From Syntrophorhabdaceae bacterium (GTDB lineage: Bacteria; Desulfobacterota; Syntrophorhabdia; Syntrophorhabdales; Syntrophorhabdaceae): DNA of 64,000 nucleotides. Every line of letters begins with the position of its first letter. Positions within the stretch are counted from its first letter, which is position 1. Location: contig OY762209.1 in the NCBI GenBank assembly GCA_963665295.1, positions 1,856,001 through 1,920,000 of the forward strand. Direction: 5' to 3'. Shown here in pieces: positions 37,801 through 43,800 of the stretch. Made by a program: the position numbers.

Positions 37801-40800
37801 CCCGCGGCCATGGTGGATGAAACCATTCCCGCCGCGCCGCCGCCTATAACGATAAGATCATAATCGAAAGATGACATTCCTTACCCCCATTTTACTGCCT
37901 TCGATCTGTCCGGATCACACGAATATAGTGACCGCCCCGGCCTTTGTCAACGATCCCGGCTGCGACGTCCCCTCGAGGGCCCGCGTTACCGCGCGGAAAT
38001 GAAGGGAAGGAGGGAGGGCACACATTATGGCGGGGAGGAAATCTTATTGCGAAGATGCTATAATCTCCTTATATTCGCATTATCGGAGGAAGGAACCATG
38101 GCAACAAGCGCCTCAAGAACCATGTCTTTGATCGGTGTGATGCTCTTTGCGCTGGCGTTTACGATCTTTTTGCCGGGAAACGCCCGCGCCGGTTCATCGC
38201 CCGTGGTGGAATGGTCTCTTGACGCCCGACTGGTCGTGCCGGGGGACGGGCTGTCCGAGGCCGCCTCCTCTGAGGGGGCTGCCCGGCAAGTCAACGCCCT
38301 GACGTCGAAACTCGGCGCAAAAGGCGTAAAGACCGAAGCACGCGTCCTGTCGAGGGATGACAGGGGGGTGACCTACGGGCTCACGGCCTCCGGAACGGGT
38401 GATGTGGATACCTTTCGCTCGATCCTCTATTCGGTGGCGCAGCCCCATTACCACGTCCTCGGCGGGGTGACCGAGATGGAGATCGAGAGCGGGGCCGCCG
38501 CCGGAAAGGACGCGACCATCGTCCTGGAATCGAACCCCTCCACGGGCTATGGCTGGAGAGTAGCCTCCGGAAGCGGTATGGTGGAGGCCGCGCCCAATGA
38601 GTACCGGATGCATACCCGCGGTTATGGAGCCCCCGAGCGGCAGGTCCTCCGCCTGACTTCGGGCGGGACAGCCGGCGGGCCCATCAAACTCGTGTACAAG
38701 CGTTTATGGGAGGATACGGCCCCCACGGGGAGCCTGAAGGTCAAACTCTCCGCACTTCCCGCGAGACTTGACCTGAGCGATCCCAATACGCCCGCCGTGC
38801 CGACCGCCATGCCCGCGGGTGTAACCCATGACGAATTGTTCCCCTCTACCCCTGAAGGGGGCCTTCCCGCCCATTTCGACTGGCGAGACTCCGGCATCGT
38901 TCCCGCGGTCCGCGACCAGGGTTACTGCGGGAGTTGCTGGGCCTTCGGCACCGTGGGGATCATGGAGTCCGCTCTCTGGAAGAATGGCGTGGCCGATGTG
39001 GACCTGTCCGAACAGTTTCTGGTTTCGTGCAATAAGGATGGCTGGGTCTGTTCGATCGGCGGGTTCACAGCCCACAAGTACCACTATGACACCCTGGCAA
39101 AGAACCAGAAGACCGTGGGCGCGGTCCTTGAGACCGTCAAGCCTTACACCGGAACCAACGGCACATGCAGCACGGGCGACTACAACAAACCTTACAAACT
39201 CACCGGCTGGGAATTCATCACGGGCTCCGAGTCCACCATGCCCACGGTGGACCAGATCAAGAACGCCATTTACACCTATGGTCCTGTTACGGCGGGGGTT
39301 TGCGCGGGGAACGCGTGGGATTATTATTACGGTTCACCGGGCGTGCTTACCACGGATGAGACGTCTCAGTGCGCCCCCTACACCACCAACCACCAGATTA
39401 TCCTTGTCGGCTGGGACGACGACGGAGGTTACTGGATACTGCGGAATAGCTGGGGCGCCGATTGGGGCTATGACGGCTACATGTACATCAAGTATGGTAT
39501 CTCCCGCGTGGGAGAGGGTACGTCATGGGTGACGACCCCCCTGGCCGGGCCTACGCTCAGCGTCTCCAAGACCGGGGGCGGCTCGGGTACGGTGATAAGT
39601 TCTCCCGCGGGCATAAACTGCGGGTCCACGTGTACCCGCCAGTTCGCGACAGGCGAGGTGGTCACTCTCACTGCGACGGCCGGCTCGGGAGCGACCTTTG
39701 CCGGCTGGAGCGGCGATTGCAGCGGCACGGGCGCCTGTGTGGTAACCATGGACGACGCAAGGTCGGTGACCGCCTCGTTCACAGTGAATACCTATAACCT
39801 TGCGGCGTCGATGACAGGGTCCGGGGGCGGCACTCTCGTTGCCACGGGACTCACGTGCAACGGCAAGAGCTGTTCCGGGTCATACCCGTATAATACACAG
39901 GTCACCATAGCCGCCACGGCGGACGCAGCGTCCACATTCACCGGCTGGACAGGATGCACAAGCTCTTCGGCCTCCCTGAAAGGAGTGAAAAGCAAGGCCG
40001 GGACCGGGACTCCCGTTTCCCGGACGCTCACGAAGGGCGGGAAATCCGCTTCCGCCCAAAGCACATGTATGGTGATGATAACGGGTGATAAAACAGTAAC
40101 CGCGAATTTTGAACCCGGAAAGACCCTCACCGTGACGAAGACAGGCTCGGGCGCGGTCACAAGCTCCCCTTCGGGCGTCAACTGCGGCTCCACATGCGCG
40201 ACGCCTTTCCAGGTCGGAACCGAGGTGACCCTCACCGCGACCCCTGCCGCCGGTTATGGCTTTGCCTACTGGTCGGGCGCGTGTACCGGCGCCGCACTCA
40301 CGTGCAAGGTCGTTATGAATGACGACACCCAAGTGGCAGCCCTTTTTAATTCGACCAAGACCAGGAAGTTCACTCTTTCAACAAGCAGGAAGAAGGTGAA
40401 TTCCGGTGACGGGACTATCGCCGGTTCCGACGGCATCATCGACTGCGGGAAGACGTGCAGCAAACCGTACTATCCGGGCGCTCCGGTTACCCTCACCGCA
40501 ACACCTGCCGCCAATTCCGTTTTCACGGGCTGGGGCGGGGCGTGTTCGGGCACGGAGACCTGCAGCGTCACCATGGATAAGGCGACCAAGGTAACCGCCA
40601 CCTTTGTGGGTCCTTATACCCTGAAGGTCAACAAGTCGAGCAAGAAGAAGGGGACGGGCCTCGTGACGAGCTCTCCGGCAGGGATTTACTGCGGGGGCAC
40701 ATGCAAGCAGAAATTTATCTACGGGACCCGGGTCACCCTCACCGCTGAAGGCGCGGGGGGCTCCACCTTTACGGGGTGGACCCCGGAAAAGATATGCACG

Positions 40801-43800
40801 GGCACAGGCACGTGCACGGTAGAGATGATTGCGGCGAAAACAGTGACGGCCACCTTCACGGGACCATAACCCGAACCGCCGAAGCGGAAGATCACCGCAA
40901 GAGAATGAGGCAATCGTCGCCCTTCCCGGCGGCAGGCAGGTCGGGCGTTGCGGTCCATTGCAGATATTGGTTCCCCATCGATCGCCAAAGTGCTATAATC
41001 TTTTGCTCCGGAAAATAACAAAGTCAAGGAGGGAACCCCCCATGCCTGCAAAGGGCTCGAAAACCGCAGCGCTCATCAGCCTCATCGTTTTTGCCCTCGT
41101 ATTTGCGTTCCTGCCCGTGGGCAGCGCTCGCGGCGACTCATCATCGCCGGTGGTGGAATGGTCCCTTGAGGCGGAACTGCTTGTCCCGGTTGACGGGGGT
41201 GTTGACCACATGAGCGCCCTCACCTCGAAACTTAATGCGAATAACGCCAGGTCGGACGCGAGGGTCATCGCTTCCGACGAAAGAGGCGTCACCTATGCCT
41301 TCAAAGCGTCGGGAAAGAGCGACGTGAATGCCCTCCGCTCCGTCCTTTATACGGCCGCCGCGCCCGGGTTCAGACTCCTCGGAGGAGTGACTGAGATGGA
41401 GGTCAGGGGGCGGGCTTTGGGTAAACAGAACACCACCATCATCCTTGAATCAAACCCCTCCACCGGATATGGCTGGAGACTCTCCCCGGGGAGCGCGGTG
41501 ACGCGGAGCGCCCCTGACAGGTACGAACACGCCCGCGGTTATGGTGCTTCTCAACGCCAGATCCTCCTCCTGACCTCGGACGCGACCGGGGAAGCGCCCA
41601 TCAAGCTCGTATATAAACGTTCTTGGGAAGACAGGGTCCCGACGCGGAGTCTGAAACTCTCCTTCCCGCTTTTGCCTGAAAAACTCGACCTCAGCAACCC
41701 CGATACGCCCGTTGCCCCGGTTGTCGCGGAAGAAGACAGGGTGCAGGAGAGCGCCTTTCCTGCCCTTTCCGTGGACCTGCCCTCCCACTTTGACTGGAGG
41801 GAGTCAGGCATTGTCCCCGCAGTCCGCGACCAGGGTTACTGCGGGAGTTGCTGGGCCTTCGGCACCGTGGGGATCATGGAGTCCGCTCTCTGGAAAAACG
41901 GCGTGGCAGACGTGGACCTGTCCGAACAGTTCCTCCTTTCGTGCAACAAGGACAAGTGGAACTGCGAGTCCGGAGGGTTTACCGCCCACAAGTACCACTA
42001 TAACACCACGGGACAGAAGCAGAAGACCGTGGGCGCGGTCCTCGAGGCCGCCAAGCCCTACACCGCAACGGACGGCACCTGCGGTACGACTGACTATAAC
42101 AAGTCCTTCAGGCTGACGGGCTGGAAATTCATTACGGGCTCGGAGAAGACCGTAGCCACGGTTGAACAGATAAAGAACGCCATTTACACCTATGGCCCGG
42201 TCACCGCAGGGGTCTGCGCGGGTAGCGGCTGGGACGATTATGCGGGCGGCGTGTTCTCCACCGACGAAACGTCCGAGTGCTGCGACCCGGGCGAGAAGGG
42301 CTGCACGAACCACCAGATTATCCTCGTGGGCTGGGACGACGAAGAACAATACTGGATACTGCGGAACAGCTGGGGTGAAGGCTGGGGGATAGACGGCTAT
42401 ATGCACATCAGGTACGATATTTCCCGCGTGGGCGAGGGGACCTCATGGGTTACCACCAAAGGCACGCTTACGCCCTCCATAGTCATCGATTCGCCGACCC
42501 TGCCGGATGGCGAGGTCAAGGTGGCCTACGTGACGGCGACCATGTCGGTGGTAAACGGCACGGGCCCCTACAAATGGGCGGCTGCCCCGGGAAGCGCGGT
42601 CCCGGCCGGTCTCAAGCTCAAGACAGGCAAGGATACGAGTATTGTTACCATTTCGGGAACACCTTCCAAGGCGGGTTCCTATAGCTTCACCGTGCGGGTG
42701 ACGGATAAGGACCAGAGGTCGGAAGACCAGGCCCTCACAGTTGTCGTCTATCCGGTACTCGCTGTCTCTCCCGACAAATTACCGAATGCCGTGGTGGGGA
42801 CAGCTTATACGCAGGCCCTCGCAGTCACGGGAGGAAGCGGCGCGGGTTACCAGTATTCAACTGTGGGGAAGACGCCTTCCTGGCTAACGGTGAGTTCTGA
42901 AGGCGTCATTGCAGGCACGCCTACCACGGCGGGAAGCTGTCAGGTCAGTGTGAGGGTAACGGACAGCCTTGGAGGATCGGTCATGAAGAGATACACTATT
43001 AAGGTTGCCAAGGCCCCTGCCGCGTTGTAGAACGGCCCCTTCCTTCCGGTGCGGGCCTGTCGGTCGAAAGGCGACCGGCAACCCGGGCCTTGCGCCGGCT
43101 AAAGAATTCGGAACTACGGTATGAGGCCGGGTATCCCGGGAGTAATCCGTCGCGAATTTCGGAAGCACGTGCACAATGGAGGGTGGTGTCCTAATTTGCC
43201 TTAAGTAAATCCTTCACACTCCAAATATGATCTGTGATTCCTGCGGCCATTGCGGGAGTAACCCTAAGAGAGCTATGTACCCTCACGAAGTTATAATGCG
43301 CGAAGTGGAGCGCTACAGCAGCCTTGAGGTTCTCAAGCTTCTTACTAAAGGCATTAGTCAGACGAGTCAACCGGCGCATTTGCATTCTCATAGTCAGGTT
43401 TTGCCGTTCAATATATGATGTGGATATTTTGGACACATCTGGCCGACCGGATACGACTATCCGATCAGCCTTAATCACGTGCGGGGGGCTATACCTTCCC
43501 GGCCCGATAGGCTCAGCCTCATAGGCTTTTACCACTTGTCCATAATCCACTTCTGCACCGAATGCTAACTCAACCGCATCCACATAAGCGGACAGTGCAT
43601 CACTACTTATCTGCACTCTGTTCTCTAGCCTCTCCGATAGGTCGCTCATAAACGCACAGGCATTTTGAATTGATCTCTTGCCTACCAAATAAGCAGGGAT
43701 GAGCTTGCTATCTGCATCAAGGGCGACCCATACCCATTGATCGCCCACTTCAAACATATTATCGTTTTTAGTAAGGTGCCGTTGTTTCTTCCCAACATAA

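Follow-up and report, generated by a model that had tools for sequence, protein, structure and literature searches.

The window analysed here, a stretch of 64,000 nucleotides, contains two neighbouring genes, both on the plus strand, in each of which a chagasin-type inhibitor domain (I42) and a papain-family protease domain (C1) are encoded in one chain. The product of gene 1 (P0001) consists of a signal peptide, an N-domain, I42, a linker, the C1 protease and five Flg_new_2 repeats, in this order; in that of gene 2 (P0002) the order is the same as far as the protease, which is followed by two He_PIG domains. The features are (the slash marks the predicted end of a signal peptide):

38056..38064, plus strand, extended -10-like box TGCTATAAT, 5′ of gene 1 (sequence reading)
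38098..40869, plus strand, gene 1, P0001, 923 aa (coding 38098-40866, then stop)
38098..38190, plus strand, gene 1 predicted signal peptide, aa 1-31, ...LPGNARA/GSSP (by eye from the translation)
38194..38469, plus strand, gene 1 N-domain, aa 33-124 (fold from the model of the paralogue P0002; alignment)
38470..38763, plus strand, gene 1 chagasin-type I42 domain (Pfam 135-210)
38767..38784, plus strand, gene 1 conserved LDLSDP motif, directly after I42 (alignment)
38785..38862, plus strand, gene 1 variable linker, aa 230-255, presumed activating cleavage site (low conservation)
38863..39531, plus strand, gene 1 papain-family C1 catalytic domain (Pfam)
39532..40866, plus strand, gene 1 tail, five Flg_new_2 (divergent InlB B-repeat) units (Pfam)
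40991..40999, plus strand, box TGCTATAAT, 5′ of gene 2 (sequence reading)
41042..43030, plus strand, gene 2, P0002, 662 aa (coding 41042-43027, stop 43028-43030)
41042..41128, plus strand, gene 2 predicted signal peptide, aa 1-29, ...LPVGSA/RGDSSS (by eye from the translation)
41141..41389, plus strand, gene 2 N-domain, aa 34-116, predicted ferredoxin-like (models, alignment)
41390..41680, plus strand, gene 2 I42 domain, aa 117-213 (Pfam, models, conservation)
41684..41701, plus strand, gene 2 LDLSNP motif, after I42 (alignment)
41702..41776, plus strand, gene 2 variable linker, aa 221-245 (alignment, AlphaFold2)
41777..42451, plus strand, gene 2 C1 catalytic domain with Q264, C270, H424 and N442 (Pfam, structure match, conservation)
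42452..43027, plus strand, gene 2 tail, two He_PIG putative Ig domains (Pfam)

The signal peptides were recognised by eye from a basic n-region, a hydrophobic core and the ends ARA/G (gene 1) and GSA/R (gene 2). Pfam places I42 at residues 135-210 of P0001 (E 1.4e-11; 45.0 bits, cut-off 27.2) and C1 at 256-469 (E 7e-42); in P0002 the respective matches are at 129-201 (E 2.4e-12) and 246-461 (E 2.1e-43), and neither protein matches the I29 propeptide at E<=0.01. Gene coordinates, domain maps and the absence of I29 are identical to what the initial annotation had given. The whole genome yields five I42 and seven C1 matches: four of the five I42 domains share one open frame with a C1 domain (two of these fusions being encoded elsewhere, outside the window), the fifth stands alone in a frame of 162 aa, and three C1 proteases have neither I42 nor a recognisable I29. 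This inventory agrees with the earlier count, as do the map of the fusion g04583 (678 aa; I42 138-216, C1 265-476) and the motifs, NPSTG being present in all four fusions and CGSCW in three, with CGGCW in the fourth. By Pfam, I42 precedes C1 by 40-60 residues in each of the genome's four fusions. The tails had been called Ig-like throughout, but not all of them are: P0002 has its two He_PIG domains and P0001 its Flg_new_2 repeats, and in the other two fusions Pfam finds BACON and/or Flg_new_2 domains.

Judged by their residues, both enzymes look catalytically active. Gene 1 encodes the catalytic Cys within CGSCW (aa 277-281), the His within NHQI (431-434) and the Asn within NSWG (450-453); Q264, H424 and N442 of gene 2 are each found in 175 of 175 aligned relatives, and so is C270, although in this case the figure is a consequence of the way the rows were selected. 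Cathepsins share 27-33% sequence identity with the catalytic domain, with TM-scores (normalised to the target chain) of up to 0.87.

The pro-region, about 215 aa in length, is a composite of a ferredoxin-like domain, one chagasin-type I42 β-sandwich, a (D/E)-L-S-x-P motif and about 33 residues of linker. The first of these domains, as well as the motif with its length-restricted linker, had been overlooked in the initial annotation. The N-domain, a conserved segment of about 85 aa between signal peptide and I42 that carried no annotation before, belongs to no Pfam family; its predicted fold is ferredoxin-like (β-α-β-β-α), and W40, G91, R99 and G114-G115 are its conserved residues in gene 2 (weighted frequencies of 0.97, 0.91 and 0.85 for the first three). 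Its fold matches are generic (Z about 5), with no protease prodomain among the 50 listed. When the pro-region is modelled alone (pTM 0.88), the N-domain is predicted to be tightly joined to I42; it could itself be the real chaperone or prodomain, a point against I42 as the lock.

The inhibitory loops of chagasin-type domains can be located in both proteins: L2, L4 and L6 correspond to NPSTGYGW (aa 146-153), GYGAP (175-179) and YKRLW (200-204) in gene 1, and to N138-W145, G166-S170 and Y191-W195 in gene 2. The modelled I42 of P0002 superposes on chagasin (2h7w; Z 5.7, rmsd 3.0 Å over 90 residues) and on EhICP2 (3m86; Z 5.5), and Foldseek retrieves EhICP2 and chagasin chains with probabilities of 0.99-1.00, yet with E-values of just 5e-3 to 6e-2. 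The conserved spots of the pro-region coincide with the chagasin contact positions named in the literature (PMC2607524). In L2, G142 and W145 are each present in 175/175 relatives, T141 in 144/175 and Y143, the equivalent of chagasin F34, in 154/175; in L4, G168 is kept in 165/175; in L6, Y191 (chagasin Y89) is found in 174/175, R193 (R91) in 164/175, and W or F at position 195 (W93) in 172/175. The partner of chagasin R91 is N18 in cathepsin L and D18 in cruzain (PMC2607524), and the corresponding protease residue here, 263, is D or N in 172/175. Of the NPTTG positions, Asn is kept in 105/175 relatives and Pro in just 66/175; L4 reads G-x-G-x-P here versus GXGG in the chagasin family. The mean frequency of the top residue is 0.34 in the N-domain, 0.44 in I42, 0.32 in the linker and 0.70 in C1; change is faster in the pro-region than in the enzyme, as is usual for prodomains. 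Covariation of the pro-region with the protease carries clade signal alone (Neff 143).

P220 of the LDLSNP motif is found in 174/175 relatives. From there to D251 the sequence is free, with a length of 30-35 residues in 157/175 relatives (range 26-56), and no cleavage-site motif is conserved among the aligned relatives. The middle of the gene 2 linker is predicted to be disordered (AlphaFold2 pLDDT 58-75 in two ten-residue blocks, aa 220-239).

Among 8000 candidates scored, 607 proteins are related at E<=1e-5. Both PF09394 and PF00112 occur in 116 of the 120 relatives listed, in line with the earlier statement that most carry both, and a Pfam scan found I42 likewise before C1 in 33/50 further representatives. 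Local HMMs identified 66 fusions among 126 representatives; each of the 66 has a single I42, immediately N-terminal to C1. Tandem arrays of 2-10 I42 repeats with no protease also exist, and a quick tree separates the I42 domains of the fusions from those of the arrays. The I42-C1 family is large, occurs in several phyla and is widespread in databases; there seems to be no bench study of this build. The initial annotation was right about the size of this family, but “anaerobe exoenzymes” is too narrow a label, as relatives occur also in purple sulfur bacteria, Achromatium, Rhodoferax, Sterolibacterium and a cyanobacterial MAG.

An AlphaFold2 model (alphafold2_ptm, no templates) of P0002 residues 30-470, built from 118 rows, has a pLDDT of 93.3 and a pTM of 0.91 and predicts pro-region and protease to be packed as one confident body; as the protease makes up just 51% of the modelled chain, a pTM this high would imply that the pro-region is confidently placed on it. 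Binding between C1 (246-470) and I42 (117-221), offered as two separate chains, is weakly supported by a score of 0.51 (runs 0.59, 0.51 and 0.50; best of three controls 0.00), with at least 98% contact agreement between runs and a partner pLDDT of at least 73. The earlier complex score of 0.89 was not reproduced; domain borders and alignments differed. The pass mark is reached by 116/157 solved complexes and 2/215 mismatched pairs, and passes at 0.60 or below comprise 18 of the 157 solved complexes and both passing mismatches. Moreover, the pass may reflect memory, because chagasin-protease complexes have already been solved.

The best reading is that both gene products are zymogens of papain-family endopeptidases, exported by Sec, and that I42, in place of a propeptide, probably acts in cis as a lock on the active site of its own chain. 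The architecture, the intactness of the catalytic residues, the pattern of conservation, the folds of the parts and the confident model of a single body come directly from the analysis; docking at the active site, inhibition, cleavage of the linker and departure of the pro-region are what we infer. Upon export and folding, three I42 loops, L2 (N-x-S/T-T-G-Y-x-W), L4 (G-x-G-x-P) and L6 (Y-x-R-P-W/F), would cover the active-site cleft, much as free chagasin covers that of cathepsin L, and the enzyme would be silent. Either the enzyme itself or a different protease might next cut the exposed, poorly conserved linker; the freed pro-region would dissociate or be degraded, comparable to the propeptides of subtilisin and cathepsins, and the active protease would stay attached to its C-terminal binding repeats. 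I42 is N-terminal to the catalytic domain in all fusions examined, which fits a cis lock; so do the chagasin contact loops as the best-conserved spots of the pro-region, the intact catalytic residues and the tightly held linker length, the narrow P220-D251 distance suiting a constant route from one docked body to the other. Counting against it are the deviating L4, the frequent replacement of NP in L2, the clade-only covariation and the motif-free linker, as judged from the alignment, as well as the three genomic C1 proteases that manage without I42 or a recognisable I29. PMC7863939 and PMC2607524 give Ki values of pM-nM for free chagasins, so that a cut in the linker alone would leave the enzyme blocked, and the sequence shows no evident way of release. 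Thus architecture, conservation and the single-body model fit the cis lock as initially proposed; support from the complex prediction is weak, and the supposed replacement of the propeptide is a composite.

It is unlikely that I42 is never removed and stays in place for good to regulate the enzyme or set its specificity, either as a gate that pH, redox state or the binding of substrate via the tails would open reversibly, or as a partial block that narrows the cleft in the way of the cathepsin C exclusion domain. The linker without conserved cleavage motif and the one rigid body of the model (pTM 0.91) would agree with a retained I42, the DLSxP motif and fixed linker length would also suit a permanent hinge, and the exclusion domain is ranked among inhibitor-like β-barrels in passages of PMC7863939; however, the conserved L2, L4 and L6 imply full rather than partial occlusion of the catalytic centre, the linker middle is predicted to be disordered, and the pro-region changes much faster than the enzyme, as discarded parts do. 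It is likewise improbable that the pro-region serves chiefly to help its own chain fold, as an intramolecular chaperone, with the N-domain perhaps doing the main work and the chagasin likeness inherited, inhibition being incidental or weak. The ferredoxin-like fold class is that of the subtilisin and carboxypeptidase prodomains. The N-domain with its near-invariant spots is found throughout the family and modelled tightly against I42, and the changes in L4 and L2 point in the same direction, but the best-conserved pro-region positions are chagasin contact residues and no general core, and the fold matches are generic; since both roles usually coexist in prodomains, this explanation overlaps with the cis lock.

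Action in trans, in which I42 would travel out with the protease and inhibit foreign papain-type enzymes, whether from competitors, grazers or hosts, or else paralogues of the same cell, leaving its own protease domain unlocked, is comparably improbable. The bacterial chagasin-type proteins studied to date are all free inhibitors of foreign proteases, examples being P. syringae Cip1 (PMC5014320) and P. putida Cpi1 (preprint 10.64898/2026.06.02.729523), and the protease-free arrays point the same way. A tethered inhibitor beside a matching C1 cleft would, however, be at very high local concentration, making self-binding hard to avoid; furthermore, the single I42 directly before C1 in every fusion, its separation from array I42 in the tree and the narrow linker length, for which there would be no reason, speak against trans action.

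If the cis lock is correct, the inventory of prodomains gains I42. Membership in the chagasin/ICP family (MEROPS I42, PF09394; chagasin, EhICP2, Cip1, Cpi1) is indicated by the Pfam match above cut-off, the predicted superposition on chagasin and EhICP2 and the retained T-G-aromatic-x-W, G-x-G and Y-x-R-P-W/F loops; the presumed target, a papain-family cleft, is also the same. The members known so far either stand alone as proteins of about 110 aa or, in Plasmodium ICP, form the C-terminal domain, with separate proteases as targets, whereas here one I42 lies inside the protease chain, with an extra domain before it. As in I29 zymogens (procathepsin L, K and S; propapain), a pro-region at the N-terminus, here presumably inhibitory too, is joined by a linker to the mature N-terminus (L-P-x-x-F-D-W-R). 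I29, however, is a small helical domain with a tail running backwards through the cleft; here a β-sandwich would insert loops and is accompanied by a ferredoxin-like domain. A “new activation principle”, as initially claimed, is too strong, since one protein family serves as built-in prodomain and free inhibitor in other cases as well. The subtilisin propeptide family I9 also includes free fungal inhibitors. Likewise, I29 also occurs as free propeptide-like inhibitors, according to PMC6010012. What differs is the inhibitor family and fold, and likely the direction of recruitment, a family of free inhibitors apparently having become a prodomain here, opposite to I9 and I29.

The cathepsin C (dipeptidyl peptidase I) exclusion domain likewise is an inhibitor-like β-barrel N-terminal to C1, as passages of PMC7863939 have it. 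It is kept in the mature enzyme, which it makes an exopeptidase, and has neither sequence nor family relation to I42. Staphostatin is encoded in the same operon as its protease and acts in the cytoplasm; unlike in the fusions here, it is a separate protein, and staphopain belongs to family C47 with a propeptide of its own. What staphopain has in common with the fusions is the pairing of a bacterial papain-like protease with a dedicated β-barrel inhibitor from the same organism (PMC7863939).

Between the TGCTATAAT box and the start codon each gene has a ribosome-binding site, GGAGGAAGG before the ATG at 38098 (gene 1) and AAGGAGGG before the ATG at 41042 (gene 2). The box upstream of gene 1 was not listed by a promoter consensus scan because it has no accompanying -35 match. 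Common to the upstream regions of both genes is the 11-base block TGCTATAATCT.

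Arrangement of the two protease genes (window coordinates; the boxes are sequence readings)
38056-38064, upstream of gene 1: extended -10-like box, block TGCTATAATCT
38098-40869, same strand as gene 2: gene 1, predicted I42-C1 protease P0001, 923 aa
40991-40999, upstream of gene 2: extended -10-like box, block TGCTATAATCT
41042-43030, same strand as gene 1: gene 2, predicted I42-C1 protease P0002, 662 aa

In addition to the TGCTATAATCT box, a GGAGG-type ribosome-binding site precedes each gene, and together the two signals favour the gene starts of the initial annotation over longer open frames. 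The products are 64% identical over residues 30-470, and the genes are therefore regarded as a diverged tandem pair; as TGCTATAATCT is common to both upstream regions, the duplication seems to have taken in the promoter region. Both N-termini read, by eye, as Sec signal peptides without a lipobox; behind the signal peptide, and directly N-terminal to the catalytic domain, the fusions carry the predicted inhibitory module, and the mature part begins L-P-x-x-F-D-W-R, as papain-type enzymes do. In P0001, Pfam places the chagasin-type inhibitor domain I42 at residues 135-210 (45.0 bits, cut-off 27.2) and the papain-family domain C1 at 256-469 (144.4 bits, cut-off 20.7); the corresponding matches in P0002 are 129-201 (47.4 bits, cut-off 27.2) and 246-461 (149.4 bits, cut-off 20.7). 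I29, the usual C1 propeptide, gave no Pfam match at E<=0.01 in either protein, nor was it found by Pfam in the two fusions elsewhere in the genome; the borders and the missing I29 had thus been described correctly, with all I42 and C1 matches above the curated cut-offs. The Ig-like tails ascribed to these proteins are present in P0002 (two C-terminal He_PIG domains) and absent from P0001, which ends in five Flg_new_2 repeats (Pfam).

The genome encodes five I42 and seven C1 matches in total, four of the I42 domains lying in one open frame with a C1 domain; in the two fusions outside the window I42 scores 46.5 and 52.6 bits (Pfam cut-off 27.2). NPSTG occurs in all four fusions and CGSCW in three of them, the fourth having CGGCW. 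These domain and motif counts agree with the initial annotation, as does the remainder, one free I42 protein and three C1 proteases without I42:

I42 and C1 proteins outside the fusions ("C1:" before coordinates is the contig)
C1:4499548-4500033, minus strand (L001:1492-1941, minus strand, in the extracted locus): free I42 protein of ~150 aa with a hydrophobic N-terminus
C1:1428310-1430166, minus strand: secreted C1 protease without I42
C1:1262210-1263841, minus strand: secreted C1 protease without I42
C1:1416190-1418115, minus strand: secreted C1 protease without I42

The free protein lacks NPxTG (LGSAGYSW at that site) and retains the R-L-W of loop L6; it could protect the cell from its own C1 proteases. 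The three I42-less enzymes end in tails of BACON, Flg_new_2 or Ig-like type, and their N-terminal regions are short, with neither a recognisable I29 nor any Pfam propeptide family found in them.

Family-wide conservation was read from an alignment of 175 sequences out of 197 (the 120 listed relatives and 77 genomic loci). Left out were one sequence without the G-x-C-W/F motif, seven in which fewer than 200 residues preceded that motif, and 14 duplicates. Alignment to cathepsins puts Q264, C270, H424 and N442 of P0002 on the catalytic residues, that is, the oxyanion-hole Gln, the catalytic Cys and His and the orienting Asn, and P0001 has equivalents. Q264, H424 and N442 are conserved in 175/175 sequences, and so is C270, on whose motif the rows had been selected. 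The model of the catalytic part has the papain fold (293 PDB matches at E<=0.001 by Foldseek; TM normalised to the target up to 0.87), the best matches being procathepsin L, ervatamin, cathepsin S, cathepsin K and cruzain. The mean top-residue frequency is 0.70 in C1, 0.44 in I42, 0.34 in the N-domain that precedes I42 and 0.32 in the linker; to judge from these alignment columns, the pro-region (N-domain, I42, a short motif and the linker) evolves more quickly than the enzyme. In the pro-region, 25 positions have a weighted top-residue frequency of at least 0.7; 13 lie in or beside the chagasin loops L2, L4 and L6, and another four belong to the DLSxP motif. In a covariation analysis of pro-region against protease columns (APC-corrected mutual information; 175 sequences, Neff 143), the best pairs were clade markers (T472 and D290, for example) and not positions of the loops or the cleft. 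In two members of the family, P0124 and locus L047, Gly replaces the catalytic Cys (CGAGW and CGSGW) with I42 retained; these are likely pseudo-proteases.

Chagasin contacts its targets through T31-T32-G33-F34, Y89 and R91-P92-W93, and R91 bonds protease residue 18, which is N in cathepsin L and D in cruzain (PMC2607524). The equivalents are largely present in the fusions: in loop L2, T141 (144/175), G142 (175/175) and Y143 (154/175); in L6, Y191 (174/175), R193 (164/175), P at 194 (99/175) and W/F at 195 (172/175), with the window copies having R-S-W and R-L-W where the family motif is RPW/F; and on the side of the protease, residue 263, the position of the R91 partner, is D or N in 172/175. 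Family-wide, only x-x-S/T-T-G is conserved in L2 (N in 105/175 and P in 66/175, N-P often being replaced by R, L or I), and NPSTG is found in 31 and NPTTG in two of the 120 relatives listed. Loop L4 reads G-Y-G-A-S/P here (G166 129/175, G168 165/175) and has no third or fourth Gly; the fusion family has G-x-G-x-P where the chagasin family has GXGG. The idea that NPSTG, which corresponds to T31S, marks a deliberately weakened lock was dropped, because that exchange leaves the binding of chagasin to cathepsin L virtually unchanged (PMC2607524). Deletion of the chagasin residues that correspond to S140-T141 is reported, by contrast, to abolish inhibition of papain and to lower potency about 300-fold against cathepsin L and about 700-fold against cruzipain. 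The I42 model is an Ig-like beta-sandwich for which VIA-align gives moderate matches to chagasin (2h7w: Z 5.7, rmsd 3.0 A over 90 aa) and EhICP2 (3m86: Z 5.5), as well as to 5swk (Z 5.9); Foldseek assigns a probability of 0.99-1.00, although its E-values are no better than 5e-3 to 6e-2.

Two elements of the pro-region were absent from the initial annotation. Between signal peptide and I42, all four fusions have ~85 conserved residues (SSPVVEW...GGVTEME), the N-domain; a Pfam search at E<=10 gave nothing for it beyond EutC at chance level, and the Atlas offered no usable look-alike. In AlphaFold2 models it forms a beta-alpha-beta-beta-alpha unit that matches ferredoxin-like folds in a generic way (Z ~5); many of these alignments extend to model residue ~180, which suggests that the last strand of I42 prolongs the N-domain sheet. 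The pro-region alone is modelled as one body (AlphaFold2: pLDDT 93.9, pTM 0.88). Directly behind I42 stands a (D/E)-L-S-(D/N)-P motif (L217 in 156/175, P220 in 174/175). The linker that follows is free in sequence and rich in Ala, Pro, Ser and Thr, and the span from P220 to D251 is 30-35 residues in 157/175 sequences (range 26-56).

Residues 30-470 of P0002 were modelled with a mean pLDDT of 93.3 and a pTM of 0.91, weak (58-75) only in mid-linker (alphafold2_ptm, no templates, 118 alignment rows). The protease makes up only 51% of this chain, from which we infer that such a pTM requires a confident predicted placement of the pro-region on the protease. This version of AlphaFold2 presumably learned from single chains, in which case a memory of solved chagasin-protease complexes is a less likely source of the placement. 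With the two P0002 domains as separate chains (C1 246-470 against I42 117-221, our own alignments) the score was 0.51 (runs 0.59, 0.51, 0.50; best of three controls 0.00), the runs sharing at least 98% of contacts with a partner pLDDT of at least 73; the 0.89 obtained earlier was not reproduced. The mark is passed by 116/157 solved complexes and 2/215 mismatches, yet at scores of 0.60 or less by just 18/157 solved complexes and by both of those mismatches, and the pass may be memory, as similar complexes have already been solved. The two-chain prediction thus lends weak support to binding of I42 to C1.

The architecture is widespread. A search that scored 8000 candidates gave 607 relatives at E<=1e-5, and 116 of the 120 relatives listed carry both Pfam labels (PF09394 and PF00112), bearing out the 115 counted before; their current names are merely generic ("C1 family peptidase", "inhibitor of cysteine peptidase", "predicted secreted protein"). 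What had been called a large family of anaerobe exoenzymes is indeed large, with 428 relative-encoding stretches (one genome per species), but is not confined to anaerobes, as its carriers indicate: besides the nearest relative, from a Syntrophorhabdaceae MAG (54%), they comprise Geobacteraceae, Acidobacteria, many Anaerolineae (Levilinea saccharolytica KIBI-1 and Leptolinea tardivitalis YMTK-2 among them), Desulfogranum japonicum DSM 18378, Thiocystis minor DSM 178, Achromatium, Contendobacter, Rhodoferax, Sterolibacterium and a cyanobacterial MAG; those given with a strain name are cultured. The pro-region alone, searched against 1.84 billion representatives, gave 317 matches at E<=1e-3 and 38 at 1e-10; local HMMs found I42 in 125 of 126 new representatives, and Pfam, applied to 50 of them, agreed.

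Architectures among the 126 representatives
66: one I42 with C1
44: 2-10 I42 repeats without a protease
15: one I42 without C1, mostly short

No protease family other than C1 stands behind the N-domain-I42 unit in these 126. A quick I42 tree (168 domains, weakly resolved) places 62 of the 64 domains labelled as fused in one group of 72 rows (SH-aLRT 93), which contains no array domain and in which five of the ten other rows are fusions missed by the first motif; this is consistent with one main origin of the fused I42, without being proof of it. The arrays, which occur in other organisms (e.g., P0122, P0126 with 10 repeats, P0129, P0132, P0135), look like compound chagasin-type inhibitors; no paper on them was met with in the literature consulted.

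As claimed initially, I42 may be a lock acting in cis, and we consider it rather probable that these proteins are zymogens, in which I42 of the proenzyme would block the catalytic domain of the same chain, the cut would fall in the exposed linker and the pro-region would then be lost. Alternatively, the pro-region might remain permanently attached as a regulatory or specificity module, I42 might be cargo, that is, an inhibitor acting in trans, or the role of the pro-region might be mainly that of a chaperone. For the lock, release is the weak point. Subtilisin degrades its own prodomain. Here, too, the pro-region would need degradation for release, since free chagasins are described as binding at pM-nM (PMC7863939; PMC2607524).

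The view that this amounts to a new activation principle does not hold, as propeptides from inhibitor families are already established for I9. They are likewise established for I29, according to PMC6010012, and the fusion is therefore a variant of a known principle. While the I29 propeptide is helical and runs backward, the predicted lock of the fusion family is a loop-inserting beta-sandwich, and the chances are even, in our estimate, that the fusions form a second, independent zymogen class of the papain family, locked by a chagasin sandwich that a sheet-sharing ferredoxin-like domain stiffens, arisen essentially once and retained by hundreds of species from several bacterial phyla; given very tight chagasin-type binding, release by destruction of the pro-region would make a sharper off/on switch than I29.

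The architecture itself is plainly visible in domain databases. To our knowledge, work on the chagasin family has so far dealt with free inhibitors alone, those of parasites and pseudomonads. No paper on the I42-C1 fusion was found (subscription journals, MEROPS and InterPro lay outside the search); the bacterial chagasin-type proteins met with in the literature consulted are free inhibitors (PMC5014320; preprint 10.64898/2026.06.02.729523), and a 2023 survey of papain-family evolution describes prokaryotic C1A proteins as single-domain or complex multidomain without further detail and makes no mention of I42 (PMC10380794). If the lock is real, zymogens of the papain family come in at least two unrelated designs and the chagasin family has a second, much commoner job in environmental bacteria; it would account for the safe export of aggressive cysteine proteases by these organisms, guide the annotation of the generically named I42-C1 genes, and offer a compact, heat-stable inhibitor scaffold, pre-matched to its partner enzyme, for switchable protease designs. 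The general view of how proteases stay latent would be unchanged even then.

The gene neighbourhood offers no functional partner; the neighbours are a lactate/malate dehydrogenase, a pyridine-nucleotide-disulphide oxidoreductase and transposases.

Elements flanking the protease pair (window coordinates)
32667-33749, upstream: DDE_3 transposase
43191-44036, minus strand, directly downstream: IS1-like transposase
44266-45187, downstream: Gp49/HTH pair
46151-46915, downstream: KilA-N protein

Past the IS1-like transposase, GC drops from ~0.60 to 0.41-0.46 (window 43191-47000 region); together with the transposases, the Gp49/HTH pair and the KilA-N protein nearby, this indicates that the protease pair adjoins mobile or foreign DNA.
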